Origin: a virus
Reading direction: 5' to 3' (one strand)
Length of the DNA stretch: 64,000 nucleotides
IMG/VR virus record: IMGVR_UViG_3300033562_000225
Span: 1 to 64,000 of that record
In this document: piece by piece, positions 5,160 through 60,300 of the stretch
Layout of the letters: each line of letters starts with the position of its first letter
Numbering within the stretch: the stretch's first letter is position 1
Translations under genes and position numbers: made by a program
Notes under the pieces: model-generated
What the model saw: the letters and a program-made list of their open reading frames with translations, nothing else
What the model was told of the DNA's origin: nothing
The model's database searches: none

Positions 5160-5760
5160 AGGCTGCTATGATTTCTTGGAAAGGTATCTTAAATAGATCA
5201 ACGCTAGAAAATACCCCAAATCCATTGCAGCTATCCCAAGGCTTTTGTCTATAATAGGCTACTCCTTCTAAGTAGATGTGAAGCCTCATCATGTCTCTGG
5301 ATGCTAGGTATATACTCCATCCTTTCTGCTTACCTACTTTGATAAAACAAATAGGAATCTTATTCTCCCTAGCAGCATCCCGTTTGGCCTGTTCCCAAAT
5401 CTTATACATGGTACAAGTAGGGACAAGTAAGCCTTCTTTGACCACACAGGTCACTTTAGCATAGTGCTTAGTCTCTACTGAGAAGGGGAATACCGCGTTA
5501 ATATCAGGACAAACTAAATCACCTACTATATTCTGCCCATCTTTCCAGCGTAACCCCCCTGAAGAAGGAACCCTAGCAAAGTCAATCCCTGCCCACTTAC
5601 GCAACTTTTTGACTAAAGCCCTCTCATTGGCGGCTCCTATAAGATGGGAGTTCTTCCTAGGTGCTTTTATTTTACCTAGTAGATCTTCGTAGGATTCTTC
5701 CATGCTATAAAGTGGGTATAGTTCATTTCGTTTGGGATAAAAATACCTTTGTCTTGGCAA
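5134..5760 (-). CDS. PD-(D/E)xK nuclease, archaeal Hjc-like Holliday-junction resolvase candidate
   Basis: Pattern FARVPSSGG...VGDLVCPD...FSVETKHY resembles the GSG...D...E-x-K core of Hjc-type resolvases. The track start overlaps the upstream gene by 85 nt. ATG at 5703 (MEESYEDL) is the more likely start. Confidence 0.5.
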   Translation of the reverse strand: MPRQRYFYPKRNELYPLYSMEESYEDLLGKIKAPRKNSHLIGAANERALVKKLRKWAGIDFARVPSSGGLRWKDGQNIVGDLVCPDINAVFPFSVETKHYAKVTCVVKEGLLVPTCTMYKIWEQAKRDAARENKIPICFIKVGKQKGWSIYLASRDMMRLHIYLEGVAYYRQKPWDSCNGFGVFSSVDLFKIPFQEIIAAYEINYSHE

Positions 5761-6116
5761 TACTTAACAAAGTCTACCGCTAGTTCCGCGTGGGTATAGC
5801 GAAGTTTAGGTAGGTGTTTGAAGGATAACTTCACATGCTGTAGCATGACGTTGTAGGGGTGGTTAATAGTGCCTCCATTGTCTATGCTTCGCATCAATGC
5901 TATTCCATGGCCGACACTGGCCGAGGTTTTGTTCAGCATTTTTCCTATCTCTACGTCACTTAGGTCGGTATAAATCCCTAGGATGTAGTAGCAAATATGC
6001 CTAGCAATAACTCCATCATCCTGCTTGGCCTTACCTTTGATTATTCTAAGAGGAATATCCGTAAGTAGGGCAATCTTCTCTAGCATTCTATCAACTTCCG
6101 CGTAGCTACTCATCAC
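5676..6116 (-). CDS. DnaA domain IV-like helix-turn-helix DNA-binding protein
   Basis: VIARHICYYILGIYTDLSDVEIGKMLNKTSASVGHGIALMRS resembles the DnaA C-terminal DNA-binding domain pattern (R..A.y....T..S...IG.......TV.H). Confidence 0.45.
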   Translation of the reverse strand: MMSSYAEVDRMLEKIALLTDIPLRIIKGKAKQDDGVIARHICYYILGIYTDLSDVEIGKMLNKTSASVGHGIALMRSIDNGGTINHPYNVMLQHVKLSFKHLPKLRYTHAELAVDFVKYCQDKGIFIPNEMNYTHFIAWKNPTKIY

Positions 6117-9887: not shown

Positions 9888-10058
9888 CTAAAAAAGGGTT
9901 TTAAAGTACCTCTTTATGAGGCGTATTAAACAAATAAATTCCAATACCGCTGCCGTACTACTAAGAAGTACTAGGCCACTATCTGCTGTCAGAAATCCCC
10001 ACCAAGTGCCTCCACAGGCTATGAGTAGACATACTAACATGATTAAGATATTTTTCAT
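9888..10058 (-). CDS. small lipoprotein candidate (56 aa, below ORF-track cutoff)
   Basis: My own translation: MKNILIMLVCLLIACGGTWWGF... The signal peptide ends in the lipobox-like L-I-A-C. ATG at 10058. The stop lies 1 nt before the next gene's start (9886). Confidence 0.45.
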   Translation of the reverse strand: MKNILIMLVCLLIACGGTWWGFLTADSGLVLLSSTAAVLEFICLIRLIKRYFKTLF

Positions 10059-10137
10059 CGGTTTTAAAGTTGAAATGTAGTAAGATTTTATTTATAACAC
10101 ATTTAATGAGTACTAAAACAAAATCTTTATATGTTAA

Positions 10138-10317
10138 TTAAGGTTGTACATTCTTAGGTTGGTGACGTTGAGCATACCTAACCAGACGAATTAAGTCTAG
10201 GTGCTGCTTAGCCGTGTAGTAGCTGACTTTTAAAACATCATCCATAGTGAACGGATAAGGGAGTGAGTAGGTTTCGGCTAATTTCTCGGCGGTCTCCTGG
10301 CGAATTACTTGGCTCAT
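10138..10317 (-). CDS. hypothetical protein (59 aa, below ORF-track cutoff)
   Basis: My own translation: MSQVIRQETAEKLAETYSLPYPF... It abuts the upstream ORF, whose stop is at 10318-10320. Confidence 0.4.
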   Translation of the reverse strand: MSQVIRQETAEKLAETYSLPYPFTMDDVLKVSYYTAKQHLDLIRLVRYAQRHQPKNVQP

Positions 10318-12394: not shown

Positions 12395-12409
12395 ATTCTT
12401 TAAAAGGTT
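12395..12409 (-). promoter_or_regulatory. conserved 15-nt pre-start motif AACCTTTTAAAGAAT, copy 1
   Basis: Exact 15-mer (plus strand reads attctttaaaaggtt), 7 nt upstream of the ATG at 12387. Confidence 0.5.
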
Positions 12410-12472
12410 TAAAATTGTTCCCGCGCTTGTATTGCTCAAGATATAACGGCTAACCGTTCACGGGATTTTAGA

Positions 12473-13176: not shown

Positions 13177-13191
13177 ATTCTTTAAAAGGTT
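13177..13191 (-). promoter_or_regulatory. conserved 15-nt pre-start motif, copy 2
   Basis: Exact 15-mer, 6 nt upstream of the ATG at 13170. Confidence 0.5.
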
Positions 13192-13462: not shown

Positions 13463-13468
13463 AACTCA

Positions 13469-13483
13469 ATTCTTTAAAAGGTT
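13469..13483 (-). promoter_or_regulatory. conserved 15-nt pre-start motif, copy 3
   Basis: Exact 15-mer, 6 nt upstream of the ATG at 13462. Confidence 0.5.
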
Positions 13484-13528
13484 TAGTACTTGTGAGAGCC
13501 TTGTTAATCTGTCTCCCTGAGTACACTA

Positions 13529-13560
13529 CAAATATACACCAGTAGAAGAGGTTCTACAAG
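13529..13560 (-). promoter_or_regulatory. Bacteroidota-type promoter (TTG-N20-TATATTTG)
   Basis: On the minus strand, the -7 box TATATTTG is at 13536..13529 and the -33 cTTG at 13560..13557, with a 20-nt spacer. It points into gene 13202..13462. Confidence 0.55.
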
Positions 13561-14255
13561 TTAACTAAGTTTAATTGGTTTTAATGTGTGTTAAATAGAT
13601 TAAGAGGTAAACCGCTTTCCAGTAGGTTGTAGGACTGTTTACAAGGCAAAGAAGCAAATAGTGTGCAGTAATGCTCGAGTAGAAGGGATCAGAATAGGGA
13701 AAGAGTCGAATAATACTCTTTGGAAGGAATGAATAATTATGAACATATGCTCATAATAAACGGGTAAAAGAAGGGATGAAATATGGGTGAAAAGATTGAA
13801 CGGATTATATAGTAAAGAGTTAGGAAAAAGAGGGGTAAAATTCGGAGGTAATTATGCCTTATCCATAGAAAAACTCTATCACTTCCCCAATTCTAATAGA
13901 TTTTCTCTATCATCCTCCAACCTATGGATAAAGTTGTCTCCACCCCGTATAGCATCGAGACTACCTACTTGATTATCAACCTATTATATTTTTACCTATT
14001 CAGCCCCAAAACCCCTCATTTTACCCCTGTTTTGGACTGTTTTAACCCTAAAGCGTGTAGGTCCTACCACTCTTACCCTATCATTAGACCTCTTTACTCC
14101 TCTAATCGGTAGATCAACCTTCTTTGCCTAGCTACTGTTGATCATTTGGCTGTCTATTCCCTGTTATATTGGATCTATTCTCTTGTTATCCCTATCCTGT
14201 CTTATATCTATAGGCAATCTACCATAGTGAATAGGTACATTCTATTCTCAATGTT

Positions 14256-14288
14256 AAAGCCTGTTAATATAGCAGGCTTTTTCTTTTG
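14256..14288 (+). terminator. orphan plus-strand intrinsic terminator inside the gene desert
   Basis: Stem aaagcctg (14256-14263) / caggcttt (14273-14280), 9-nt loop, followed by TTCTTTTG. There is no plus-strand CDS upstream. Confidence 0.6.
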
Positions 14289-14763
14289 TATGTAGTCAAT
14301 CACCTATCTAATCATAGTGAATGAAGAGACCTCATACCAACTGTAGCAGCGTGAAGGGATCACACAAGCAATCACAGCCTATTGAAAAGGATGGCGGGGG
14401 GTTGTTTTGAGAAAGGTGATTTTGAGGTTTCGATTATCTTTTCTGGTTTCTGGTTGGAAGGCCTACCCCCTCCGGTGCTGGGGGAGTCCCCTAGACATAG
14501 AAATATGATTTTACACTACTACTTGTGGAAATACCATTTTGTAAACTACTTTACGATACTCTACACTTCAAGAAACACTACTGATACCCTGTTTTCACCT
14601 ATTTTTAGGCCTATTTAATCAACTCAACCTGTAAGTATGGTACTCTTCTATCAATTGACTATATTTAAGCCTTATTTTCCCTACTAAATAACTTCTTGTA
14701 TTCTTAATTTCTTACACTCTACTACGTAATATAATCATAACTATACTCCCGTTCAATGCTTTA

Positions 14764-14809
14764 TGCAAAAATACCCTATTTCAACGGTTTTTAATCGTAA
14801 AATAGGGTA
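14764..14809 (-). terminator. intrinsic terminator after gene 14840..15175
   Basis: 10-bp stem taccctattt (14772-14781) / aaatagggta (14800-14809) with an inner 3-bp helix. On the minus strand it is followed by TTTTTGCA. Confidence 0.6.
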
Positions 14810-14839
14810 AAACTGCTAACTAGTTGATAGGGATATTGG

Positions 14840-15175
14840 TTATACTAACTCAAGAGTGTGATCGTTGGGGAGTAGGTGTTTTATTAAATCGTATTCGGAG
14901 TCGGTAAACGTAGAGGCGTGCTCTTTATACTTACATCCAAAGTGTTCAATATTATCGCAAGTAAATACATCACTAAGACTTGTGAAATACTCTCCATTCA
15001 ACTTAACATAAAACAGTCTAGATGTCTTAGGAACCCAAACTATAGAGACCCAGAAATTAAACAGATATATAGCAAACCCATTCCTACCAATCCCTACAGT
15101 TAATATCATAAGATGCAGATACCCTCCTTTAGAAAACCTATGTTTAAATCCGGATGTTACTTTTATCATCTTCAT
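14840..15175 (-). CDS. hypothetical protein with one hydrophobic segment
   Basis: ORF track. 4-nt overlap with the upstream ORF (15172). Confidence 0.5.
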   Translation of the reverse strand: MKMIKVTSGFKHRFSKGGYLHLMILTVGIGRNGFAIYLFNFWVSIVWVPKTSRLFYVKLNGEYFTSLSDVFTCDNIEHFGCKYKEHASTFTDSEYDLIKHLLPNDHTLELV

Positions 15176-15366: not shown

Positions 15367-15471
15367 AGGTTACATATTATTTAATGAGTGATCGCTTCGT
15401 TTTATTATCTCAAATGTGGCTATCTCTTCGTCCTTGGCTTTCTTTACTCTCATCAACTCTACTGCTAGGAG

Positions 15472-15702
15472 TCATGAGAACTGCCCAACTATGGAGTCGA
15501 ACTTCTCTTTACCAATGTATTTAGACATAAGACGAAAAGAGCAATCCCCAGCATAAACCCTATCAATGGTAATAACATTATCTCTATGCGTGTCACGGGT
15601 CATACTACCTGATACTTCTATTAAGGCTTCTAGCATATTGGATTCCCCTAACAGGCCTTTCAATTCATCAAAATGTTTCATAAGTCTCAATGTTTTAAGC
15701 AA
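15472..15702 (-). CDS. hypothetical protein
   Basis: ORF track. The track start is a TTG. ATG at 15681 (MKHFDELKG) is more likely. Confidence 0.45.
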   Translation of the reverse strand: MLKTLRLMKHFDELKGLLGESNMLEALIEVSGSMTRDTHRDNVITIDRVYAGDCSFRLMSKYIGKEKFDSIVGQFS

Positions 15703-15929
15703 AGTTATTCATTGTCTTTCATTGGTGAAGTTAACCAATACTAAAATCTCCTAATTTGTCAATGATTTGGAGTAATTAGTACGTTTCATGCAAACTTCCC
15801 CAAACTGTTTTAGGCTTGGATAGGTAAATTACCATAGTTTCACACGTTTATTTGTAGTTAACATGTAGAAGTGATAAGTATATCCATTTACCTAGTAGTT
15901 AGTGCCTTATTTAGGCTTTAAATTGAATA

Positions 15930-15968: not shown

Positions 15969-16379
15969 TTAATCAAGTGGATAATAGACGGAGCCCTGTA
16001 TGTGATTGCCTAATATATCCCACAAATCCTCGTCACTGTATTCAGATAAGTCGGATTCTTTATCCATGGTTATCTTACATGCATGATGCAACATATAAAA
16101 ATTATGCGGCCTTGTGATACCATGCCCCAGTAAAATGCGCCTAAACCTAACCATGTCCTCCATATTAGAGGGGTATGGGGCCTTGAATAAAACCCCCTTA
16201 TTGGCTAGATCACACACTCTACCTAGCATAACTCCCCACAACAAATCATCTGAAACCCCATCAATAACTCGATTGTGTTTAACTGATTTACGTAGTATAT
16301 AATCTTCAATAGACTCTATAATAGCCTCATCACAGTTGTACCCATTATAGGATAATAAATTAGATATTCTGGTTCTCAT
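15969..16379 (-). CDS. hypothetical protein carrying two D-x-x-L-W modules
   Basis: SDDLLWGVML and SDEDLWDILG resemble repeated modules in the adjacent 394-aa protein. Confidence 0.55.
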   Translation of the reverse strand: MRTRISNLLSYNGYNCDEAIIESIEDYILRKSVKHNRVIDGVSDDLLWGVMLGRVCDLANKGVLFKAPYPSNMEDMVRFRRILLGHGITRPHNFYMLHHACKITMDKESDLSEYSDEDLWDILGNHIQGSVYYPLD

Positions 16380-16410: not shown

Positions 16411-17595
16411 CTACGGTTTCTTTATTTTAAACTCTCCTGCACTCACAGCCGATTGTATAGCATCCCATATCTCAGCATTACTAGACCTAGCCAGAGAAGG
16501 GACATTAAGCCTAAGCAACAAATAATCATACAAGGCTCCTAAATCATACTCTTCCATGAAACCATGATTTCTAAGCATGCTACCTAATCTATTCCTAACA
16601 GAAAACTTAGGATACCCATTGGGACAATCAGTGTTATCATAGGAAGCATCTTGGATAGGTGTCTTAACTACTTCAGTAAGCCTATCTCTGACCGATTTAT
16701 AGGCAGGAGTTTCAACACCTCCTACCCAAGGCTCTTTACCCAAATCATCTGAGAATTGTTGCCCCATACCCTTGGTAGGATTGCCTACACACATAGGATC
16801 AAAGGATTCTTCTGGTTTATTTGGGTACGTCTTCATAATATCAGTAAGAGCCCTTATACAAGCCATTCTGCTTGAGCACATATGATCTATCACCTCCCAT
16901 ACATCATCGGATATATCAGCAGTAATAGGTAACACCCCTTCACGGAATATATACTTACCCATCAACTCCATAACTAAGTTCTTGGGACAATCAGGATAAC
17001 CCTTATCAGACACAATGCTGTAAATAAAATCAAGATCTTTTTCGGTCACATGAGAAAGAAGAGATTCTTCAGCCATAGTAGCCGGTATGGGGTATTCAGC
17101 AGGTTTAACACACTCTTCAGGAGTTGTTGGTTTGGTATACTGCTTTACTTTGGGTTCGATTAGTTTCCAAAGGTCTTCATCCTTCTCTGGTATAGGGATG
17201 TTCTTTGATTCTAGAACGCTCTGAGCGTATAAGGCTATATCAGTGTACTCATCATCAGTTAATCTGTATCCTTTACTATACAACAAACGAAGTGTATACC
17301 CAACTAAGTACAAGGCAATACCATGAGGTTTAGAGGACGGTTTAGATGGTTCCTTGGTTAATACTTCGCCCGTATAAACTAGCATAAGTAGTTTGGCTAT
17401 AGCCAGCCCAACACATACCCAGGCAATCTTAAAACCACCCAGCAGTAATAATTTTACCAAATGCTCTATAGGACTTAGTATGTCGGTATGCCATCCATAA
17501 AGTACCTGAAATACTATAACGGAAATTATGCCTATCACACCTAAAGCGGATGCTAATACTAAAGCAGTCTTTACCCAAAACTTGAAAGTCTTCAT
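16411..17595 (-). CDS. membrane-anchored protein with three repeated D-x-x-W-x-x-I modules
   Basis: N-terminal TM segments (ALVLASALGVIGIISVIVFQVL, LLLGGFKIAWVCVGLAIAKLLMLVY). The modules are EDLWKLIE, SDDVWEVIDH and NAEIWDAIQS. Confidence 0.6.
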   Translation of the reverse strand: MKTFKFWVKTALVLASALGVIGIISVIVFQVLYGWHTDILSPIEHLVKLLLLGGFKIAWVCVGLAIAKLLMLVYTGEVLTKEPSKPSSKPHGIALYLVGYTLRLLYSKGYRLTDDEYTDIALYAQSVLESKNIPIPEKDEDLWKLIEPKVKQYTKPTTPEECVKPAEYPIPATMAEESLLSHVTEKDLDFIYSIVSDKGYPDCPKNLVMELMGKYIFREGVLPITADISDDVWEVIDHMCSSRMACIRALTDIMKTYPNKPEESFDPMCVGNPTKGMGQQFSDDLGKEPWVGGVETPAYKSVRDRLTEVVKTPIQDASYDNTDCPNGYPKFSVRNRLGSMLRNHGFMEEYDLGALYDYLLLRLNVPSLARSSNAEIWDAIQSAVSAGEFKIKKP

Positions 17596-19553: not shown

Positions 19554-19841
19554 TTATTCGGTTAAAATAGTCAATCTAAGCATCATTTTAGCCTCTATAA
19601 GCGGGTCCCTTTCTAATCTAGTCCTACGATAATTCATTCGCATTATCTTATCTAAATTGGGTATGTGTGACACATATAGAGTATCTTCAACTAAGCCTAG
19701 TAATCTGTATTTATGCTTTCCTACTCTCACCACTGGTTTATAAGGAACGTAGGCAGCAACTAAGGCTAAATAGGTTTCCTTACATTCGGGTAGTAAAATA
19801 TCTTTCGGCATATCAGTATGATTGAATACAAATGTAAACAC
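19554..19841 (-). CDS. hypothetical protein
   Basis: ORF track. The track start is a GTG. ATG at 19811 (MPKDILLPE) is more likely. Confidence 0.45.
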   Translation of the reverse strand: MFTFVFNHTDMPKDILLPECKETYLALVAAYVPYKPVVRVGKHKYRLLGLVEDTLYVSHIPNLDKIMRMNYRRTRLERDPLIEAKMMLRLTILTE

Positions 19842-19881
19842 AATTAATTTAAGGCAGTATTAACTAAAGTTGTTTAACGTT

Positions 19882-33564: not shown

Positions 33565-34719
33565 TTATCTACCCTTAGCCCTTTTATACAATTTCAGTAA
33601 CGCAGCAGAAGAAGGAGTCTTGTCTTTAGCCAAACTAGCCAGCATGGGTGTAGCAGTAATATCAACCATTTGCCCACAAATATCAACCAAAGTAGGTTTA
33701 GTATTTTTGTAGGTCTTAGTCCATACTATGTGACCGTTTAAACATCCTTTAACTGAATTAGCCTTAAACTCAACACCTCCTACAGTCAACTTAATGTTAA
33801 CTTGCTCATTACCAATAGTATTTAGTTTTTCCCCATACGTATTATTATATGGTGAGGAAAACATTTTACTTAAATTAAATGAGTGTGTATTAGATGATGA
33901 TTCTATGACTGCGTCTTTTCTACTGTTTACAAATACTTTTTTGGGGTTAGCAAAAGCTACTGACGTAATGTCAGGGTTATGCTTGTTAACATCTAGCGGT
34001 ACGTAGTTACCGTATTCATCCACGTTGTTGTTATACCACTGTTGAGCAAATGGGCCGGAGTATAAGACATTAAAATTTCGATGCTTTTTTATGAGCTCTA
34101 ATTCTACCATCTTCTCCACCTTGTTGAATGCTGTCTTAGGTGTGCACCATAAAAGTAATGAAATTGTTTTGTATGATAGACCTGATTCGTTTCGAGTGTG
34201 CTCTTGCCCACACTTGGTATTGATAGAAGATTTTGCTTTTCTAAAACTTGTTGAAGTCTTAGATAGTCTCTTCCTGTTGGCTTTAATTCTGTCGGTGGCC
34301 AGCTTCTCTCTCAATGAATTACGTCTTTCCAATACAATAGCATAAATCTTTATTTCCACGTCTCTAACCGAGTCGGTGGGTTCTAGTATTATGCGACTAG
34401 TTACTGCAAATGATTTTTCCTCGTTATGAAGTTTGGTGAATACTACTTGTTTTCCGTTATCTGACATGGTGGCCCAGCCCATCTTAATGCAAGTCTCCAC
34501 ACATTTATTAGCCAATGGCCAAGAAATATGCATCAGTTTTGCTATACGATTTATGCTGAACTTGTTTACTGCGGAGGATACGAACATATTCTTAAAGCAC
34601 AAAGCCAAGGCTAGGGCTCTTAGTTTCCTTCTGGAACCTAGAACCTTATCGATGATTTCGTATTTGATTAAGAACTTTTTATTCATGTGCCCCCTAAGTA
34701 CATTTATATAATTCTGCAA
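33565..34719 (-). CDS. winged-helix-like DNA-binding protein, function unknown
   Basis: The N-terminal region FSINRIAKLMHISWPLANKCVETCIKMGW is HTH-like and the middle is K/R-rich. The track start is a TTG. ATG at 34686 (MNKKFLIKY) is more likely, with a -7 box TATATTTG (minus strand, 34724..34717) upstream. Confidence 0.5.
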   Translation of the reverse strand: MQNYINVLRGHMNKKFLIKYEIIDKVLGSRRKLRALALALCFKNMFVSSAVNKFSINRIAKLMHISWPLANKCVETCIKMGWATMSDNGKQVVFTKLHNEEKSFAVTSRIILEPTDSVRDVEIKIYAIVLERRNSLREKLATDRIKANRKRLSKTSTSFRKAKSSINTKCGQEHTRNESGLSYKTISLLLWCTPKTAFNKVEKMVELELIKKHRNFNVLYSGPFAQQWYNNNVDEYGNYVPLDVNKHNPDITSVAFANPKKVFVNSRKDAVIESSSNTHSFNLSKMFSSPYNNTYGEKLNTIGNEQVNIKLTVGGVEFKANSVKGCLNGHIVWTKTYKNTKPTLVDICGQMVDITATPMLASLAKDKTPSSAALLKLYKRAKGR

Positions 34720-34749
34720 ATATACTTAAACTTTAATTATATACTACTA

Positions 34750-34780
34750 TTGTTTATATCATTTATTCAACTTATATTTG
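34750..34780 (+). promoter_or_regulatory. Bacteroidota-type promoter (aTTG-N20-TATATTTG)
   Basis: TTG at 34750-34752 and TATATTTG at 34773-34780, with a 20-nt spacer. Confidence 0.5.
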
Positions 34781-34786
34781 TAGGAC

Positions 34787-34862
34787 AATTCTCAGACATG
34801 TTCCCCCGAATTACTGAAAATTACTAAACCCCGATGTATCGTTACATCGGGGTTTTCTTTTT
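34787..34862 (+). ncRNA. candidate ~70-nt small RNA / mini-ORF transcript
   Basis: Bounded by the promoter at 34750-34780 and a strong terminator at 34829-34862. Contains only a 9-codon ORF (34798-34827, MFPRITENY). Confidence 0.35.
34829..34862 (+). terminator. intrinsic terminator
   Basis: 10-bp perfect stem ccccgatgta (34829-34838) / tacatcgggg (34843-34852), 4-nt loop, then TTTTCTTTTT. Confidence 0.8.
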
Positions 34863-47485: not shown

Positions 47486-50400
47486 ATGAACAATACTATC
47501 CATCCCGACAACCGACAAGTACTAACCTACGAAAAAGGGGTTAATGGGGATATTTCCCCAAGCAAGAAGTACGAAGCAGAAGGTTCCGCGTACCGGCTCA
47601 TAAACTGTCGTATTAACCCTCTCACTCACCTATTGGAGAATGTGGAAGGCATAGATACCAATGTGACTATATCCGTGCTCAGGGACGGTATAAAACCGGT
47701 TACCGCGTCTAGGACGGTACTTAATTCCGTACTCGTAGGGGATATGCAGGTGCTGGCCTTGGCCGGGGCAACCCCTTCCGACGGGCAGATCGCGATTTAC
47801 CTCAACGATCAGGTGAAGATAGTAGCACAGCATGCCGACATGGCTTTGTATGAAGGCCAAGTAGTAGACATGAGTACTGATGGTAAGGATGAAGTTTACC
47901 TATGCGGTAGCAATCAGCCTAACCTATTCTTGAGTGTCTCCGACTTGCTGGCCTCAGTAGGTACAGAAAAATACTTCACCAAGTTTGAACTTGATAAGCA
48001 TATCCCCCGGGTGGGGGCGGCCATGGGCGTACCCATGTATGTGAAGCACGAAAACATTGGATCGGCTCTAGGCTTAAAGGCTGGTTCCTACGTGTACTTT
48101 CTACGATTGGTGGACCCGGACGGTAACCGAACCCCTTGGAGCCAGTCCACCCCCTTAATACCGGTTGCCTATGATGTCCCTACAGTAAACGTGCCTGGGT
48201 ATGTGGGTACTCACCCACCCTTCGGTAATAGGGCTATTGGTGTGAAACCTAACGGCGACACATCCATGGGTATAAGACTTAGGTTTAGAGTGGATGGTAC
48301 AGCCGGTTTCTCCTATGCTGAAATAGGTAGAATGGCTTACAATACTGGTCAGCCTATAGGATTCCTGCCTAACATCGAAGTTACTAAAGTAGTTTCAGAT
48401 GCTTTTGGAGCAACTGTTAAGTTGGATTCAGTAGCCCAAGTAGTAGAGTTTATCGATACAGGTAGGACACAATACATTGCATCTGACCCAGAAGCAGACG
48501 TACTACCTTCCCAAATGGAAAATTGTAACAACGTAACCTACTACGATGGCCGAGTTATTTATTCAGGCATCAAGTATAAAAAACTCGATCTGTCTCATAG
48601 TGTCCGACTAAAGAGAACTTCGGAGTCTTCAATATATCCAAGTACTACCCCTAATACGTGTATGTATCCATTTACTGAAGACTTAGGGGCTGCCGGGCAT
48701 AGCGACATTACCAATCAAATATACAAGAAATGTGATACCCCTGGGGACTATCGCAACTATGCTATAATTTTGTGGGATGGTAAAGGAGGAAGAACTCCTG
48801 CCTTACCTTTAGATGATCTACGAGCATACAAGATGAGCAATTTGCGGGATAAGTTACTCCCCGAATCTGAGTTTGCCTCAGCCGATGCAGAAAACATGCC
48901 TAGAGTAGATAATACCATGGGTAAGACATTGGATATTTATCAATATGCAGCAGGTGCCGAATTATCTACTTACTACGGTGCCCCCAATCCGGCTAACATA
49001 GGCACCAACTCTCCGCCCGAACCTGTAAAACCTACTAGTAATGCAGTACAGTACTATAGTTTCAATAATGGATCGAGTGAAAGTGCTCTACCTAATCCAT
49101 ATAAACCAGGATTTAACTTAGGTATTCCTAGAGCCCTAGTCGCTGGTAAGAAGTGGCGGACTATAGGAAACATGTTGCAGGGAGTAGATACTTCATCCTT
49201 CCCTGATTGGGTGGATGCTTTTTCTATAGTGGCCTCAGATACTCTAGGAGCGGTGGTATTTACCGGGTTGGCTATGTACAACCCTGAGCAAAAAACTGAG
49301 AAACGTATAGATGCCCAGGGGCATGAGATCATAGAAATGCTTAAGAGCATGAATACGGTAAATGTCCATACCCCTATGTTGGATATCAACCCCGAACTGG
49401 CTCAGGCCATAATCGATAACCCAAGTAACTACAAAATGAAGTTACTTAGCCCTGTATCTTTCTTGCCTGAAATGGCTAGAAATGCTAAGACTTCAGTAGA
49501 TGCTCATAAAGCTAAGGGAGAGTTTTTAGTTAGGACCCACTATAACAATGCTTTTGTGGACGGGGCTAGAGAGATGGGGTTTGGTCTTTGGATGAATAAG
49601 GTAGGTAATTTTCATACTACGGCTGGTAAACAGTCTGCTTATGAGTTCCCTATAACATCCGCCTCCATAGTTACAAGGTGGCCTGAAAATATTGGTGGAG
49701 TCCCTAAATCCCCCATTCTATCTGTTTCTGTAGGACCTAGGGATGATATATACCCTGATCCTCTATATGCTACCCCTTATAATACCATGGATACTCGAAA
49801 CGATGACTATTACGAACCATGGTATATTGTCAACATTGTAAGAACGGCTGATTTTGATGTGGTATCTCCCAACATATCTACATACAAATCCATAGGCCAC
49901 TACCAGAAACTAAATTCAGTTATAGGTATTGGTACAGGAGCCACTCAAGAAGTACTACTTGTAGATGAGCGTCCAGAAGATGCTATAGGGGAATTTTCTA
50001 TAGCAGGGTACCTAAAAGTAGATGGAAAATGGTGGATGCATTTAAGCGTACTAGATCAGGCCATAGTAACTGCTATCACTAACAATGGGTTTTATACCTA
50101 CAAAGGAAAAGATATCTATGGCCTATACACTCATAAGTTCTACGGCAAAGATACTTACATCAAATTCTCGAATGATTGGGAAGGTGTTTCTGTGCCTGTG
50201 AATATGACTTTGCCTAGAGCAAACGCGTTGATAGAGGTAGTGTATAATAATGATAACCCAATAAAATTATTTAGTGGGGATAGCTATGTAGGTATGGCTC
50301 AATGTATGTTTGCTGAGGCTGAGTGGGAAGAAGGATCCATTACCTACGATGGGGCTACTAGTACTCGTAGGGCTATAAAAAATGAGGGGCATGATCTAGG

Positions 50401-51784
50401 GGGTAGGTTTTTATATCGTTCTCTATTACCTAGAGGATTTGGATTCAAGAATCAGACCGTCATAAATGAGCCTTCTTTATGGTACGAACCTAAAACACAA
50501 CTAATAGATAGGGCCTCTCAAGTACTAGTATCATATCCTATAATTTCCAAGGTTAATGTTAATTTAGCCTATGATGGGTACCCTGTGGTAAACTATAGAG
50601 ATACTTTGCTGGAGTACATTGTAGAGAAGCCTGAGAAGTACTTACTATCTGTATTCGGGGCTCCTTACTACAATATTTTCAGGCTCACCACTATTGGGCA
50701 GGTAGGAGGGTTTACTGCACCTAATTACAACCTAGACTACACCAGGGTACTTAGCGGCATATTCACCTCCTTACCTATTAGAGGTTTTACAGAAATAACC
50801 TATTTCCCCAACCGATTGGCTTGGAGTAATAGAAAGCAAGAGTCAGTACAGGACGTAGCCACTAATAAAACCTTCTCGGCTCTGGCTGTATTTGATTTGC
50901 CTAGTGCCTCCGGGGATATAACGTATATCACAGCAGCTAACAATGTCCTAACGGTATTTACTGAAAACGATATAGCCAAGATTCCTATTAACCGATACAC
51001 CCTGTCCAATGTCGACGGCTCCAATATGGGAGTATTACAAACCAATCGTTTCATTGGGGAGGTAGGATGGTTAAATGCTAACCTAGGTATTCCAAAAGAT
51101 AGGCGAGCCATGGTGGCCGACTTCATGGGGTCAGTGATATTCATAACCAAGGATAACGAGGCTTACCTACTAACCGATAAGTTATCACCGGTGTCTACCG
51201 GATTTCGTTGGAAGTTAAACACAATTGTGCCTAACGAAGTCTTAGGTATCGCGCGAGGATTCTATAGGAAAGACTTGGGTGAAGTATGGATACCTAATGC
51301 TACAGGCTTCATGGTGTATTCTCTATCCTATCAATCTTGGTACTCTGTAGTGTTGGATGCTTCTTACGCTTTCGTGAACCATAAGGCCCCTATATGCTTT
51401 AAAAATGGGGTATTCAAGAATCAGAACGGAACAACTGATTTTGCTAATGAGCCTTTGGCTTGTAGGGCTTACTTCGTCGCTCAGCCATTACCTTCTACGT
51501 TCAAGTCATTTGTCTATCTTAACATGTACGGAAGTAACGTAAATGAGATAGAATTGTGGGCAAATAAATATCATAACGTCATTGGAGCAACTAAAGCATA
51601 CTCTGACGTGCTAAAGGTACGAGGCAATAACCAGTGGGCATACTTCCCAAGTGATGAAAAACCCCCATACAATAGATGTCAAGCAGACTGGGTAATTATG
51701 GCTATAAAAGGTTCGCCACTTCCTATAAGCGACGGTAAATTTTCCGTAACTACCATAGAGGTAGGGAGTAATAAAATTGTATAA
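47486..51784 (+). CDS. large virion/tail protein (1432 aa)
   Basis: An uninterrupted 4.3-kb ORF in the structural operon. No catalytic motif recognised. Confidence 0.6.
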   Translation: MNNTIHPDNRQVLTYEKGVNGDISPSKKYEAEGSAYRLINCRINPLTHLLENVEGIDTNVTISVLRDGIKPVTASRTVLNSVLVGDMQVLALAGATPSDGQIAIYLNDQVKIVAQHADMALYEGQVVDMSTDGKDEVYLCGSNQPNLFLSVSDLLASVGTEKYFTKFELDKHIPRVGAAMGVPMYVKHENIGSALGLKAGSYVYFLRLVDPDGNRTPWSQSTPLIPVAYDVPTVNVPGYVGTHPPFGNRAIGVKPNGDTSMGIRLRFRVDGTAGFSYAEIGRMAYNTGQPIGFLPNIEVTKVVSDAFGATVKLDSVAQVVEFIDTGRTQYIASDPEADVLPSQMENCNNVTYYDGRVIYSGIKYKKLDLSHSVRLKRTSESSIYPSTTPNTCMYPFTEDLGAAGHSDITNQIYKKCDTPGDYRNYAIILWDGKGGRTPALPLDDLRAYKMSNLRDKLLPESEFASADAENMPRVDNTMGKTLDIYQYAAGAELSTYYGAPNPANIGTNSPPEPVKPTSNAVQYYSFNNGSSESALPNPYKPGFNLGIPRALVAGKKWRTIGNMLQGVDTSSFPDWVDAFSIVASDTLGAVVFTGLAMYNPEQKTEKRIDAQGHEIIEMLKSMNTVNVHTPMLDINPELAQAIIDNPSNYKMKLLSPVSFLPEMARNAKTSVDAHKAKGEFLVRTHYNNAFVDGAREMGFGLWMNKVGNFHTTAGKQSAYEFPITSASIVTRWPENIGGVPKSPILSVSVGPRDDIYPDPLYATPYNTMDTRNDDYYEPWYIVNIVRTADFDVVSPNISTYKSIGHYQKLNSVIGIGTGATQEVLLVDERPEDAIGEFSIAGYLKVDGKWWMHLSVLDQAIVTAITNNGFYTYKGKDIYGLYTHKFYGKDTYIKFSNDWEGVSVPVNMTLPRANALIEVVYNNDNPIKLFSGDSYVGMAQCMFAEAEWEEGSITYDGATSTRRAIKNEGHDLGGRFLYRSLLPRGFGFKNQTVINEPSLWYEPKTQLIDRASQVLVSYPIISKVNVNLAYDGYPVVNYRDTLLEYIVEKPEKYLLSVFGAPYYNIFRLTTIGQVGGFTAPNYNLDYTRVLSGIFTSLPIRGFTEITYFPNRLAWSNRKQESVQDVATNKTFSALAVFDLPSASGDITYITAANNVLTVFTENDIAKIPINRYTLSNVDGSNMGVLQTNRFIGEVGWLNANLGIPKDRRAMVADFMGSVIFITKDNEAYLLTDKLSPVSTGFRWKLNTIVPNEVLGIARGFYRKDLGEVWIPNATGFMVYSLSYQSWYSVVLDASYAFVNHKAPICFKNGVFKNQNGTTDFANEPLACRAYFVAQPLPSTFKSFVYLNMYGSNVNEIELWANKYHNVIGATKAYSDVLKVRGNNQWAYFPSDEKPPYNRCQADWVIMAIKGSPLPISDGKFSVTTIEVGSNKIV

Positions 51785-54337: not shown

Positions 54338-57300
54338 ATGCCCATATTAAATAAATTATTTGGTGAGTATAAGAACTATCTAGGCCAAGGAGGTACTAAA
54401 GCAGCAGGGTTTCCTCAAACTTATGAGGAATACTCTAAAACTATGTCTTCAGGGGATTTGCAAGCCATATACAGGTATGCTAAGGAGAGATATACCAACG
54501 GAGTCCCTAAGACTTATGCTGACTTCCTATCCACAGTAGACGATGAATTACCTAAAGGAGTAAGCCAGCGTTTAACTCATCACGCTATACAAGCAGCTGG
54601 AAGACAATTAGGAGTTACTCCTAGGGAAACTCCTACAGCCAGACAGGCCACCGAGTCTCTAAAGACTCAAGGAGCCTTACTTACTGAAATGCCTGTAGAG
54701 CAAGATATAGAAACTCCTACAGGAGCACCTAGAGTAGATACTCAAATATCTACAGGATTGGTAGGAGTAGATCCAACAGGCCAACTACCTAAACCAACTA
54801 TAACTACAGGTTTAGATGATGTACTTCCCAAAGTAAGTGTTCCTGAAGAAGGTTCATTTGCTCCTGCACCTGCTAGCGTTCCGTCTCCTACGTTACGTCA
54901 GCCAACCGCTGCGGGTACTATGGTCACCCGTAAAGGTGAGCCCACTACGGCCGAAGATGGTGATCCTACTATCCTAGGAAGAGCGGGAGCAGCCACCGCT
55001 AGAGGAGGGGCCACTACTTTAGATGCAGTAGGAGGGTTCTTCGAGGTTATTACTAACCCTGCTTACTACGCTTCAGAAGCCGTTGAAAAGTACTCCGAAG
55101 TTGTAGGACCAGTGATAGAAGATTTAACCAGTGCTGTAGGTATAGGTGATACTGCTATAGGTAAGGCTATAGGTGTGGTGGCTAAAGGGGCCCCATCAGT
55201 AGCAAGCACATTTAAGAAAGAGGAATACGGTGGAGACCGTTACGCCTCCTTCACAGGTAATAGAGCCTATGTAGAGTCATTGGTTGGGACTCAGACTATG
55301 TCGGACCTATCCATAAAAAATCCTAACATCAAAGCGGCTCTAGTCGGAGTAGAGCAATTAAGCGGTATGGCTTTGGACTTGGCCCTACTGGTGGGTACTA
55401 GGAATCTGACCTCAGCCGAACCTCTTTTGACTAAATTTAGTTTGGGGGCTGAGGAGTTGTTCTATAAGTTTGCTCCTAAGGCTATAAGTACCGTTCCTAA
55501 GGCTGTAGGTAAAATATTTGGCGAAGCAGTCACCACCCCTACGGCCATACGCTCTCTACAAGTAGATTGGATTCAACCCTTCAAGGAGTTCGCTAAGTCT
55601 GACTTTGCAGTATTCTTAGGGGCCAAAGAATCGGCCCTAACTATGCAGGACTCAGATGCTAGTACTCTAGCATCCATAGGTGAAGGTATAAAAGCCTTCG
55701 GGATGGGATACTCCAATGGTTTATTCTTTGAGAAGATAGGGCTTACCCCTGTTAAACTAGCTTCATCTATTGCAGTCAAAACAGGCACACCTATTGCCGG
55801 ATTGGCTACAAACATGATAGGAGCAGGAGGAGTAGGATTCGGGGCTGATATGCTTTTACAAGCAGGTGAGCAAGTAGAGGCTGGGGAGAAGGTAGATCCT
55901 GATTACTATAGGTCGATAGCCGCCGGTGTAGCGTTTGCAGGAGGTACAGTTCTTCATGGTAGAAATATTATAGCCAATACTAGAGCGGGTATTCGTGCTA
56001 AGCAATGGAGCAATCTGATGGAGATGGAGAATAAAACCATAGACTACTGCTTAAATAACGCTTACGATGCACCTACTTTAAACGCTAAGATAGATGATAT
56101 GATGACTAAACGTGATGCTGTTGTTACACGGTTAGAGCGAACTATATCTACTAGTGGTAAGCCTGATGCTGCTTTAGAGAGGACTCTTATGGGTATAGAT
56201 GCCCAAACAAGTGCCTACCGTCAAGTATTACTTACACAGTCCTTTACTAAAGAAATAATACAGAACCCTGATAAGTTCCGTAACGAAATACTAGACAACC
56301 CTAATCTAAAGGCTGAGGTAAAAGACAAATTATGTCAACGCATCGACGCGATAGTACAAGAGTTCGATCCTATCAATGTTGAATCAAGACGTTTACAAAC
56401 TACTATCAACGATTGGCAGTTTGCTAAAACACAACTTGATCCTAATGATCCTATGACGGCTAAGAAATCAGGTATCTACGATAAGCAGATTGCTAAGGCT
56501 GAGGATAGGATGGCTGAACTCTCAGTAGCCCCAACCTACTACTACAAAGGGGAGTTCTATGATACTCACGGAGCTCTAATTGATGCCTTAAACAAGCGTT
56601 ACGTCGACGGTACTTCTTCGGAGGTTATTGTTCGTAACGATCCTCAAGCATCCAAGTTGGTTAATGAGTCTTTGAATCAGCTGCTAGATCGTAAGTTTAA
56701 CGAAGGAGTAAAAGTACAGCAGACACAAGAAATAGCCAAGGCTGAATCACAACCCGAGCGTGACCTAGCCATAACTCAAGCACAGGAACGTTTAAAACTT
56801 CCTACCGAACCTGAATTAATGGTAAGCGATCAAGCCGTGGCTGCCCTCGATCGGGCATTGGCTGGTGAGAGTGCCGATGTAGCCAAAGTTCAAAATGCTT
56901 CTGACCAACTCTATGCTGAGACTAAACGGTTGGAGAAAATGAAAGATGTTGATGGCAGACAGTACACCATCGAGCAAATAGAAACTGCCCAGCGTCAGGC
57001 TTTCGAAGATGTAGCATTTGCCGAGAACTACATCCAAGCAAAGAAGGCAGGAGAAACCATAGATGTTAAAGCCTTACGTGAAGAAGCCAAAGCAACGGCA
57101 GAAGACGCTATAAACGATATCAGAGAACGGAGACAGATTTTGCTGCCTGAATCGGTGAAGGCTAAGTTAAACGCCCCTAAACCCGAAACAGTTCCCGCAG
57201 AAACCGTAGCCAAAGTTGAACCAGTAAAACCTGTAGAAGATGCCAAAAGGGACGAAAGTACACTCGTGCGTCCAGAAGGTGAGCAAGTCCCACCCGAAGG

Positions 57301-60300
57301 GGTCAGCGATAGCAATTTGCCAAAGCCAGACAAAACAAAACTACTCGACAGGCCGACCGCTGAAAAAGAAGTAACCACTTGGGAAGAACTCCCATCATCT
57401 GATTATGTAGTGCTAGGTCCCGAAGGTAAGCCGATGGTGGCCGGAAAGGAACGTCGCGCGGCTATTGCCCGCGAAGAACGCAGCGTACGAGATAAAATGC
57501 TTTCTGACTACAGGCAGGCCAACGAAACCCGCTTGCAGGAGTATCGCGCCCAGGTTGCCGAGGAAAGACTAACCGAATGGAAAAAGGAGAACCCACAGGC
57601 TACCGAAACAGAAGTAGATACCCAGCGTAAAAAGATATCGGAAGAATCTGCTACCGCTACGCTGGCTCGCGCCGGTGCTGGGCTTACGGATGCCGACGTG
57701 CTACTCGGGGCTAGGCTGGCTACGTCCTACCTACGCGAAGGGGTAAAGAAAAGTGCTGACCTATTCAAAGAAGTGTCAGACAACTTACGCGGAGCCCTAG
57801 GACTCGAAATCACCAAGCAGGATTTTAAGCGCATGATGGCTACAGAGATTCCTGAGATTGGTCAGGCTCCTAAGGAAGCAGTTAAAACTTTATTCGGGGA
57901 GGCTGCCAAGTCTACTGTTAAGCGTCAAATCGAGGAAATAACTGGTATCAGAAGAAAGCCAGAAGTAGCCGTTTTAGACAATCTAAAAGAAGCAAGGGCT
58001 AGATATAAGGAACAGGAGAAAGTTGCTTCTGATGCCCTCAAAATAGGTGTTAAAGAGGGTAAACTAGAGATGAAGGAGGCTGCCTTCGATAAGCAAGGTT
58101 ACCGCGATCAACTCAACCAGTGGGTATCGGATAATAAGAAGGAAATCCAACAGGTAAATCCCGAGTTGACTCCGGCCATCTTACGAGCAGTAAACAACGT
58201 GAATAGTTGGTATACTCTTGATAGAGGATTAAAGCAAATCAAGAAGGCTATTTCAGATAAGACCTATGCAGATAACCTAATCACTCAAGACAAGTTATTC
58301 AAACAGGTTGAAAAGAATCTATCCCACGAAGGCAAGAGTAAGTTCGGCACCGCTCAAGGAGAAGTGGCCGACTTCCTACGTATCGATCCTAGTTCTTTAC
58401 CTACTGAACTTCGAGGGAAGTACGACACCTTGCTAGAGTCCATGGCAGCCAAGGCTACCGAAGTGCCTTATGACCCGTTCCAGCTAAAGCAATTCCTGGA
58501 TAACGCCAAAGTTCACGTCGACGAAGGTTATGCTGCTTATCGTGCTAAACTTGTAGATAAGGCTGTAGCCAAGGAACTAGCAGCAAAGGATGTGGATAAG
58601 AAAATGACTGCCAACGAGCGCGAGGTAGCGAAGAGAGACATTTACTCTACCTTAGCCAAAACGGCTATTGAAGGACTAAAATTTAAGAAGGGTAAAGTAA
58701 CCACAGGAGAAAAATTAATCAACGAGGTTACCCAATATTCTAAAGAGGAGTTGATGCGCTTGCCTTCTTCCACTCTATCGCGTCTCCCGTTTATGGTGGA
58801 TAAGATGGCTGTAGGTGTTGTGCCTTCTCGTCTATACCAAGATGTATTAAGACCTGTTAGATCATACAAGGCTGCTGATACTATTATGAAGGCTTTCGGT
58901 ATGAAATTACGTCCAGTACTAGAAGAATTGGATTCTAAGATTGGGGCTGTACGGGAGCAACTAGAAGTAGACATGCAGGGTAAAGGGCTAAGTTGGTTCC
59001 AGCAAATGAGGCTTAAAGATGCCTTACTCAACAAGCCTAGGTATCTACTTGACTCCATATTTAAAGGGGCTAAAGGATCGCGCACCTTCTATGATAATAT
59101 CCTATCTAATTCTGCTTTTAGTAAAACAAGAGCCGAGGCCGATGCAACCCGTGCCAAAATAAGTGCAACTAATTTATGGGGTAAAGCATACAGAGCAAGA
59201 GAAAAAGTAGGAGATAACCGGTTCGATAGTGGTTTTATTTCTACACTATACTCCAAAGCATTAGAATATGAATCCAACAAAGGATTAAAAGGGGCCCATT
59301 CCCCCCAAGATTATTTCTCTCAGTTGGTAGACTACCGTAAGTCTTATGGAGTATATACCGAGCAGAATACCATCCGTATGCGTGAACTGTGGAACAAGAT
59401 GCAGGATGCTAACGGAGACGTGACTGCTGCTTCCATTAAGAAGTTAATGCTTCCCGAAGAAACCGCTGCTGTAGACTACATGCGTAAATGGTACGATAGT
59501 GAGGGTATAGAAAAAACTAGGGAAGCCGAGGTAATGTACCGAGGTGGTGCTTTAGATACTTACGAAAACTATAGTCATAACTTCGTAGTTAATGGCAACA
59601 ACATGGTCGATCCTGCTGCTTTCGTAGAGCAGATATTCGGCGGAACTCCTGCATCCAATATGTCGGTACGTAGTGCTACCACGCATGCCCGAAGTGGACA
59701 AACCGGAGTAATAAGTATCGATCCTATTGCTACCTTCAATCGTGCAGTAGACTCTACCTATTACGACTATCACATGACTCCGGCCATCCAGGAGGCTTTA
59801 GGAGCCTTTAAGGTAATGTCGGATATGGCTACTGATAAATCCTTCCGGGATTCCCTGCTAATGATAGAGAATGCCTATAAAGGGGATATTACTATAGCCT
59901 TTGAGAATACCATGAGGCAGACTACCAATATGGATAAGATAATGAATGCTATGGGTGGGGCGTTCTACTCCGGGGCGTTATCTTCAATACGTCGTATCCC
60001 CCAAGAATTTTTATCTAACTTATCATCAGCCATAATTTATGACCCTGTTTCTTTTTATGAAGGGTCAAGAGCCATTATGGATCATCAGACTGCTAAAGCA
60101 GCCGAATCTACTTCTATGAGTTCTGGTTATGAGCCTTTATTTGACTTTGCTGGTGTAACCAATAGGTTCCGTAGGAATGTAGAGGATGCTCAACGTTTGT
60201 TCAACGATACTAACATGGCCGGTAGTACTATTAGAACAGGCAAATGGGATAGGACCATAGATACTATAACCAATAACAAGGTTAAAAATACCTTCGATAC

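Follow-up and report, generated by a model that had tools for sequence, protein, structure and literature searches.

The window, a 64,000-nt stretch (positions 1 to 64,000) of IMG/VR virus record IMGVR_UViG_3300033562_000225, belongs to a phage that encodes a large terminase distantly similar to T4 gp17, a portal and tail fibres, together with an SbcC-like nuclease, a Dda-like helicase, a DnaA domain IV protein and a PD-(D/E)XK nuclease. A replication initiator was not recognisable in this gene set. By all gene callers, and with the public gene calls taken from the source contig Ga0308317_1172387 (78.8 kb; JGI metagenome 3300028549), the largest gap of the window was found at 13463-14839, where 1377 nt are without any called gene; the runner-up gaps measure 488 and 361 nt. 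The gap separates two predicted early minus-strand operons, the right-hand one ending in a terminator at its right edge and the left-hand one starting from a promoter at its left edge (Table 1). In the left-hand operon, small early genes are followed by the Dda-like helicase, the DnaA-domain-IV protein (5676-6113) and the PD-(D/E)XK nuclease. The gap is thereby at the head of the operon carrying replication genes, which begin 5.6 kb from it. Phage genomes seldom contain long non-coding regions, and those that occur are usually origins, packaging or entry signals, or regulatory RNAs.

Table 1 Features of the gene-free gap and its edges, in window coordinates.
Feature	Position	Strand	Description
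Block A	13501-13985		Aligns with L004 at 75% identity
Predicted promoter of the left-hand operon	13529-13565	-	-7 element TATATTTG at 13529-13536; GTTAAC ~21 nt upstream (13560-13565)
Strongly conserved DNA, -20 to -140 of the promoter	13546-13668		Candidate regulator binding region
Purine-rich tract	13600-13850	+	Global maximum of the window; a minus-strand transcript would be C-rich and G-poor
Candidate RNA/DNA fold of block A	13621-13970	+	Long-range helix 13621-13626/13965-13970 with enclosed hairpins
22-bp palindrome	13736-13757		ATTATGAACATATG(C/T)TCATAAT; candidate operator for a dimeric DNA-binding protein
Variable middle	13986-14368		Unalignable with L004 (383 nt here, 229 nt there)
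Terminator-like hairpin with T-run	14256-14288	+	Intrinsic type, within the variable middle; -14.5 kcal/mol, z = -4.1
Block B	14369-14842		Aligns with L004 at 73% identity
TTG-started ORF	14382-14618	+	78 codons; open in both phages; judged no gene
GC-rich double inverted repeat	14389-14508	+	GGCGGGGGGT, 62 nt, ACCCCCTCC, then CTGGGGGAGTCCCCTAG
AT-rich, pyrimidine-rich tract	14505-14760		~30% GC; 34-nt conserved island and recurrent CTACT
Predicted terminator of the right-hand operon	14764-14809	-	Intrinsic type; long hairpin, then UUUUU

None of 50,697 GenBank phages matches this phage at the nucleotide level or in the capsid protein, and it represents a lineage without cultured or catalogued relatives, two lineages being found among 5.8 billion proteins. 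The sole relative lineage, recovered by three protein searches of 5.8 billion sequences, is a 54.8-kb Logan contig (L004) whose proteins are 43-79% identical to those of the window; another Logan contig (L002, 8.7 kb) differs from the window by one base over 8742 nt. In L004, 1434 nt at the syntenic position are likewise free of genes, and two blocks of the gap, A and B, can be aligned between the phages. For the genes immediately flanking the gap, no homology between the two phages was detected, and this implies that a non-coding module was kept while its neighbours were exchanged. Protein-pattern scans of viral contigs with the flanking proteins yielded no further relative, the four conserved cores of the gap had no exact copies in viral contigs, metagenome contigs or species-genome contigs, and among GenBank phages there was no DNA similar to the gap at E values up to 1.

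The constraint on blocks A and B appears to be moderate, since their identity is above the neutral benchmark given by four-fold degenerate sites in eight shared genes (63% identical, 183/289), yet equal to that of genes and other intergenic DNA. The shared genes as a whole are 61-84% identical and the remaining intergenic DNA of the pair aligns at ~70%, and the blocks are not better conserved than these. Identical runs of 27, 28, 34, 34 and 44 nt between the gap and L004 are suggestive of selection. As proof of strong selection they were rejected, because coding genes of the same pair have identical runs as long as 54 nt and the alignment of other intergenic DNA is just as good; with only two lineages in existence, nothing in this comparison is statistically firm.

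The gap is non-coding. The preliminary description had called it a gene desert, and this is borne out: the only ORFs inside are the short ones named there (13787-13972, 13924-14112 and 14382-14618) and four more of 31-49 aa. All six frames are interrupted by several TAA, TAG and TGA codons each, and an alternative genetic code was rejected, as no single stop-codon reassignment opens any frame of the gap. No confident protein homology was found across the region, a result that the preliminary description had named as refuting its proposal, and ARAGORN reported no tRNA or tmRNA in the gap under normal or relaxed thresholds. In a search for an attP core in a tRNA gene, the conserved cores of 21 nt and 22 nt had no exact match in 185,579 species genomes. 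A template repeat of a diversity-generating retroelement (DGR) was also absent, with no gap-derived repeat longer than 17 nt elsewhere in the window, and the precomputed Pfam hits of the genes between 4840 and 25175 included no reverse-transcriptase domain of a DGR or retron.

It is very improbable that the gap conceals small protein genes, for which the chief candidate is the plus-strand ORF 14382-14618 (78 aa; 90 aa in L004). This ORF is open in both phages with a common TAA end, and the net 36-nt indel between them preserves the frame. Its mismatches are, however, spread evenly over the codon positions (18/21/22), and its codon changes comprise 7 synonymous and 31 non-synonymous ones, unlike 3/4 control genes, in which changes lean to the third position and synonymous and non-synonymous counts are about equal. 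The start codon is TTG in both phages, Pfam and PHROG gave no match, and the sole match among 1.84 billion representatives was a spurious ORF over a tRNA array. Stop codons are scarce in pyrimidine-rich DNA, and a 3-nt periodicity was found nowhere in blocks A and B. On the codon statistics and the spurious nature of its single match, this ORF was rejected as a gene.

At the right edge, the hairpin and UUUUU at which the right-hand minus-strand unit had been proposed to end are real, and the pairing is kept in L004, where one stem position has undergone a compensatory double change from A-T to G-C. The consensus fold has the best score of the region (z = -5.3). With a stable hairpin, a U-run and a stem kept in the relative, this element has all the attributes of an intrinsic terminator.

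At the left edge, the proposal that the left-hand unit starts from its own promoter (then placed at 13529-13560) agrees with the comparison: the -7 element TATATTTG is the only TAnnTTTG conserved in L004 on either strand, and it sits within a 27-nt run identical there. With GTTAAC/TTG lying 21 nt upstream of this TAnnTTTG, where a -33 element would be expected ~19-21 nt off, the site qualifies as a sigma-A promoter of the Bacteroidota type. The arrangement GTTAAC-N20-21-TAnnTTTG recurs at 15700 and, as GTTAAT, at 19829, and several intergenic promoters carry GTTAAC or GTTAAT 20-21 nt upstream. The intergenic promoters thus resemble those of Bacteroidota; since TAnnTTTG is not enriched genome-wide (61 versus 57), we infer the phylum of the host rather than assign it. 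A virion RNA polymerase of the N4 or crAss type that reads hairpin promoters was considered and rejected, the 2343-aa protein in question being without a family or PDB match and without a DxDxD motif.

Within block A, conservation is highest over the ~140 nt that precede this promoter. L004 shares identical runs of 19, 28 and 34 nt there, 40-nt segments reach identities of up to 0.90-0.95, and the sequence occurs once in the window. The palindrome ~200 nt upstream of the promoter is perfect in L004 and matches at 21/22 positions in the window, where it is present as a single copy in 64 kb with 0 expected. This is consistent with an operator for a dimeric regulator, of which the palindrome is a candidate. 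The palindrome and the conserved upstream islands may bind phage or host regulators of the promoter at 13529.

The strand composition of the gap is extreme. The alternating purine-rich and pyrimidine-rich blocks seen in the preliminary description include both global maxima of the 64 kb: 13641-13840 is the most purine-rich 200-nt segment (+0.44; sd 0.105) and 14012-14211 the most pyrimidine-rich (-0.38; sd 0.105), both ~4 sd from the mean, and the purine skew switches sign at ~13855. The purine bias of 13600-13850 is kept in L004 (+0.36 to +0.46) despite just 55-70% sequence identity; the pyrimidine-rich tract is not kept. With GC skews of +0.46 and -0.51, the respective transcripts would contain ~27-31% C and 10% G. 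The idea of one giant hairpin that pairs the purine-rich with the pyrimidine-rich half was rejected, the arms being unconserved and the fold no better than that of shuffled sequences. Smaller repeats had also been pointed out here: the 10-bp inverted repeats at 13832-13841/14018-14027 and 13859-13868/13922-13931 are present, but they are at chance level or unconserved, with second arms unaligned or deleted in L004, and the tandem TTCTGGT, present in the window, reads TTCCGGTTTCTGTGT in L004 and is likewise not conserved.

These compositional tracts bear on the possibility that the gap is purely a transcription-control or insulator region without an origin, made up of the terminator, the promoter with its operators, and zones of Rho-dependent termination. 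Under this explanation the purine tract would give a C-rich, G-poor minus-strand RNA just before the promoter, and the pyrimidine-rich tract would do likewise on the plus strand, backed by the terminator-like hairpin at 14256. The terminator and the promoter were both confirmed, the C and G contents of the transcripts fit, and it is the purine bias rather than the sequence that is conserved across 13600-13850, as expected for rut-like sites. An insulator would, however, leave the invariant GC-rich inverted repeats and the 34-nt island of block B unexplained; moreover, the pyrimidine-rich tract is lost in L004, a strong intrinsic terminator already stands before the region, and at 1.2 kb the region is long for an insulator, given how compact the genome is. 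We consider a pure insulator unlikely.

Block B combines a GC-rich element with an AT-rich tract. The G/C-rich patch first described at 14394-14500 proved to be a double inverted repeat that includes a 44-nt run identical in L004 (14462-14505). Its consensus-fold energy is -31.5 kcal/mol with a structure conservation index (SCI) of 0.82, and it folds better on the plus than on the minus strand in the window (-37.9 versus -22.0) and in L004 (-38.8 versus -31.5). The stems of block B are invariant between the two phages, so covariation is not measurable there. The adjoining AT-rich tract ranks third-lowest in GC among 300-nt segments of the 64 kb, its conserved island (14620-14653) is identical in L004, and CTACT occurs 6 times versus 0.6 expected (4 versus 0.8 in L004).

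The fold of block A encloses hairpins at 13634-13672, 13736-13757, 13846-13861, 13865-13879 and 13937-13962. Together with the GC-rich element of block B, it makes up the case for one or two structured non-coding RNAs (ncRNAs) that would be made from the plus strand, in antisense orientation to the neighbouring genes, by promoters of a type not recognised here. The candidates would be the ~350-nt domain 13621-13970, closed by its long-range helix, and the ~115-nt GC-rich two-helix element 14389-14505. In keeping with this, a strong plus-strand terminator stands without a gene before it, in both phages the plus-strand form of the GC-rich element is the stabler one by 7-16 kcal/mol, and a single T-to-C change turns a U·G pair into C-G, a pairing that survives on this strand only. 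Block A shows four double changes in its consensus fold, one of them in the closing helix, which forms again when each phage is folded independently. L004 has a twister ribozyme in its adjacent leader, an indication that RNA-level devices occur at the locus.

The quantitative tests of folding gave a divided answer. The Rfam search for which the preliminary description had called came out against a known family, with 0 Rfam 15 matches in the whole window; the best sub-threshold match in the gap, CRISPR-DR26, scored 23.1 bits against a gathering threshold of 39 and is absent from L004. A CRISPR-repeat mimic acting as an RNA anti-CRISPR at 14427-14453 was rejected on this basis (23 bits versus 39, unconserved). 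De novo folding, suggested at the same time, gave consensus z-scores for block A of -3.5 and -4.0 on the two strands and for block B of -2.2 on the plus strand versus -0.2 on the minus strand, each from two sequences only. Single-sequence z-scores were not significant, ranging from +0.5 to -2.2 for the halves and block A against dinucleotide shuffles, and those of the whole region lay between -0.6 and -1.5. The compensatory pairs of block A were likewise not significant (4 versus a mean of 5.2 in column-shuffled alignments, P = 0.75), and block B with its invariant stems has no double change (0 versus a null of 2.5). For block A, the two strands reach an equally low consensus-fold energy, which is the pattern that DNA palindromes would give.

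Transcription of such RNAs would also need a start and an end. The preliminary description had found no consensus plus-strand promoter, and comparison with L004 agrees, with neither a conserved TAnnTTTG nor a conserved GTTAAC-N20-TAnnTTTG on the plus strand. With no host-type promoter into the gap on either strand, the evidence argues against dedicated transcripts. The plus-strand terminator reported at 14256-14288 is indeed strong in the window, but it lies in the unconserved middle, and its counterpart in L004 is no more than an AT-rich hairpin of 7 bp, which precedes the conserved TTTTCTTTTG by six bases; the whole segment there folds at -7.5 kcal/mol (z = -1.0).

As a long conserved stretch that is free of genes and has GC-rich hairpins although the phage genome is AT-rich, the gap resembles large structured ncRNAs of phages or bacteria in Rfam, such as GOLLD and ROOL, and the antitermination RNAs of phages (lambda nut boxB, HK022 put). 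It differs from these in lacking an Rfam match at any threshold and support from covariation, and in that its element is placed after a terminator, not after a promoter. We consider RNA products of the plus strand doubtful on balance. It is equally doubtful that blocks A and B encode undescribed families of phage ncRNA, one of ~350 nt with multiple hairpins and long, single-stranded, purine-rich loops, closed by the helix 13621-13626/13965-13970, and one of ~115 nt with two GC-rich helices. The chances are similarly small that such ncRNAs, antisense to the early operons and made from a non-canonical promoter, have factors of the host or the phage as their targets, serving for instance as a protein sponge or an anti-defence decoy.

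The other function proposed at the outset was a replication origin, for which the known origin types offer several points of comparison. Iteron origins are recognised by direct repeats of about 12-22 bp that occur at least three times at regular spacing. The gap was found to have no such series, only weak families of two or three copies, none conserved as repeats; block A is not duplicated in block B, as the two are not similar to each other, and the only recurrent short repeat is the pentamer CTACT. DnaA boxes (TTATCCACA-like, one mismatch) number 27 in the 64 kb versus 19 expected and are not enriched, and the two DnaA-like boxes in the gap (13859 and 13923) are changed or deleted in L004. 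The gap resembles iteron and DnaA-box origins in that this phage encodes a DnaA domain IV protein, but differs from them in having no evenly spaced repeats and DnaA-like boxes that are neither enriched nor conserved. With lambda ori, T4 oriE and plasmid RK6 gamma it shares the character of a non-coding region near a replication module, AT-rich and strand-asymmetric. It is among the AT-richest regions of the window but not the richest, 10042-10141 and 34695-34794 being lower in GC; the AT-richest 10.0-10.6 kb, examined as a rival origin spot, was rejected, as there are no repeats there either.

A closer comparison is with the origins of T4, which have no common motif, combine a promoter with an unwinding element, and are located where the compositional bias shifts (PMC3016281). 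At oriF and oriG, replication is primed by an R-loop from a promoter with an AT-rich unwinding element downstream (PMC3016281). The window phage has a T4-like replication and recombination toolkit and no recognisable initiator, and its gap has a promoter at the edge, AT-rich DNA and a sharp shift of strand composition; the absence of a sequence motif is common to both. Unlike in oriF and oriG, the promoter of the gap fires away from it with no unwinding element downstream, and there is no sequence similarity. Among promoters of recognisable type, the R-loop layout was thus not found, the single one (13529, minus strand) firing outward into a leader of 34% GC. The 1.2 kb of the gap is also about ten times the size of a minimal T4 origin.

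The same location between two transcription units raises the question of whether the gap marks the physical genome ends or a DNA-transit signal, such as terminal repeats, a packaging start or a T5-like injection stop, with block A as the early-promoter side of a left end and block B as a right end. The injection-stop region of T5 is more than 1 kb of non-coding, inverted-repeat-rich DNA between early-gene blocks, and its defining property is that the DNA enters in stages, starting from a fixed end. The gap is likewise more than 1 kb long, non-coding and furnished with inverted repeats between early gene blocks; one unit ends in a terminator and the next begins with an early promoter, the inverted repeats include GC-rich ones, this is the largest non-coding region of the genome, and the L004 contig stops 435 nt past the gap. 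Against genome ends, three independent assemblies continue straight through the gap, the large terminase, distantly like T4 gp17, suggests headful packaging, and the terminase genes are 22 kb off. The gap differs from the T5 region in having no large repeats and in the type of terminase. We regard genome ends or a transit signal as highly unlikely.

Taken as a whole, the gap matches no known sequence family, yet as a feature it is of a known kind, the intergenic region of a phage that serves for control or as an origin. Being non-coding and retained under moderate constraint, it is likely to have some nucleic-acid-level function. Neither of the alternatives first proposed for it, a structured RNA or an origin, passed a specific test. 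Our tentative preference, which we hold as a possibility, is a cis-acting control module that works mainly at the DNA level and combines the terminator, the promoter control region and a probable origin. In this module, the ~1 kb beyond the regulator sites, comprising the purine tract, the GC-rich double repeat and the AT-rich CTACT tract, would serve as a replication origin or another site of replisome loading. The hairpin-forming GC-rich repeats beside easily melted, strand-asymmetric DNA would be opened there, possibly aided by transcription from the adjacent promoter, and the variable middle would be a tolerated spacer between two functional halves. The remainder of our confidence goes to the gap having no function.

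At present the gap is a well-delimited experimental target rather than a discovery. Its function would give a first handle on the start of replication or on the early-transcription switch in this lineage. If it acts as an RNA, it would represent a new class of phage ncRNA, and if it acts as an origin, this would be of an initiator-less, motif-less type comparable to that of T4.

Promoters of the early genes in the window share a common layout, in which GTTAAC(T/A)(T/C) is followed after 20-21 nt by the Bacteroidota-like -7 element TAnnTTTG, with GTTAAT in place of GTTAAC in the early promoter at 19829. TAnnTTTG by itself is not enriched across the window (61 observed versus 57 expected). Three small early genes have a repeated leader, ATTCTTTAAAAGGTTTA, directly ahead of their start codons, as does the gene that comes first past the syntenic gap in L004, the 54.8-kb Logan contig of the sole relative lineage found; the leader's minus-strand form, TAAACCTTTTAAAGAAT, lies a few bases upstream of the ATG. 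This leader is probably a common signal for translation initiation or RNA processing.

L004 carries an insertion of ~200 nt between the conserved promoter and the first gene that the window lacks. Inside it, the model of the type-P1 twister self-cleaving ribozyme (RF03160) matches at L004:13939-13990 (+ strand, the gene strand of L004) with 52.1 bits and E = 2.2e-10, short of the gathering score, 67.2. The match spans the entire model, with one optional hairpin missing, and immediately precedes the shared translation-start leader AAACCTTTTAAAGAAT. The independent Logan contig L002 agrees with the window over 8742 nt except for a single C-to-T change at window 13864, within the gene-free gap, which falls on the opening base of a 10-nt run kept in L004.

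Coordinates of leaders, promoters and genes discussed in the text (window positions unless L004 is named).
Feature	Position	Strand	Details
Repeated leader	12395-12411, 13177-13191, 13469-13485; L004 13991-14020		ATTCTTTAAAAGGTTTA; minus-strand reading TAAACCTTTTAAAGAAT
Early promoters	13529-13565, 15700-15735, 19829-19864	-	GTTAAC-TAnnTTTG layout
69-aa gene	15472-15681 (within region 15394-15702)	-	TGA end
136-aa protein	15969-16379	-	repeated acidic motifs (D/E)(D/E)LW..I
394-aa protein, membrane-anchored	16411-17595	-	repeated acidic motifs (D/E)(D/E)LW..I
Late-arm promoters	34773, 34903, 35772		TAnnTTTG, TTG upstream
1432-aa giant structural-arm protein	47486-51784	+	
2343-aa giant structural-arm protein	54338-61369	+	

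Sequence searches of Pfam, PHROG and PDB returned no match for either giant structural-arm protein, and the DxDxD motif is absent from the 2343-aa one. In the tail-fibre region of L004, a protein (L004:1892-3502) whose residues 1-59 match the N-terminal start of the window's 1196-aa protein contains an Mtd_N domain (PF18454), a domain of the receptor-binding protein that diversity-generating retroelements target; neither a template repeat nor a reverse transcriptase was seen within the available DNA. The 136-aa and 394-aa proteins make up a repeat family that databases leave unannotated, and their 273-aa L004 homologue aligns separately to several of the repeats.

The TGA that ends the 69-aa gene, in the context UGA-C, corresponds to a glycine in the 95-aa L004 homologue. 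The 25 codons beyond it remain conserved in frame with L004 (LLAVELMRVKKAKDEEIATFEIIK versus LLALELMKAKKSKDEEIAKFDIVK), which suggests that the stop codon is read through or that a nonsense mutation arose there recently.
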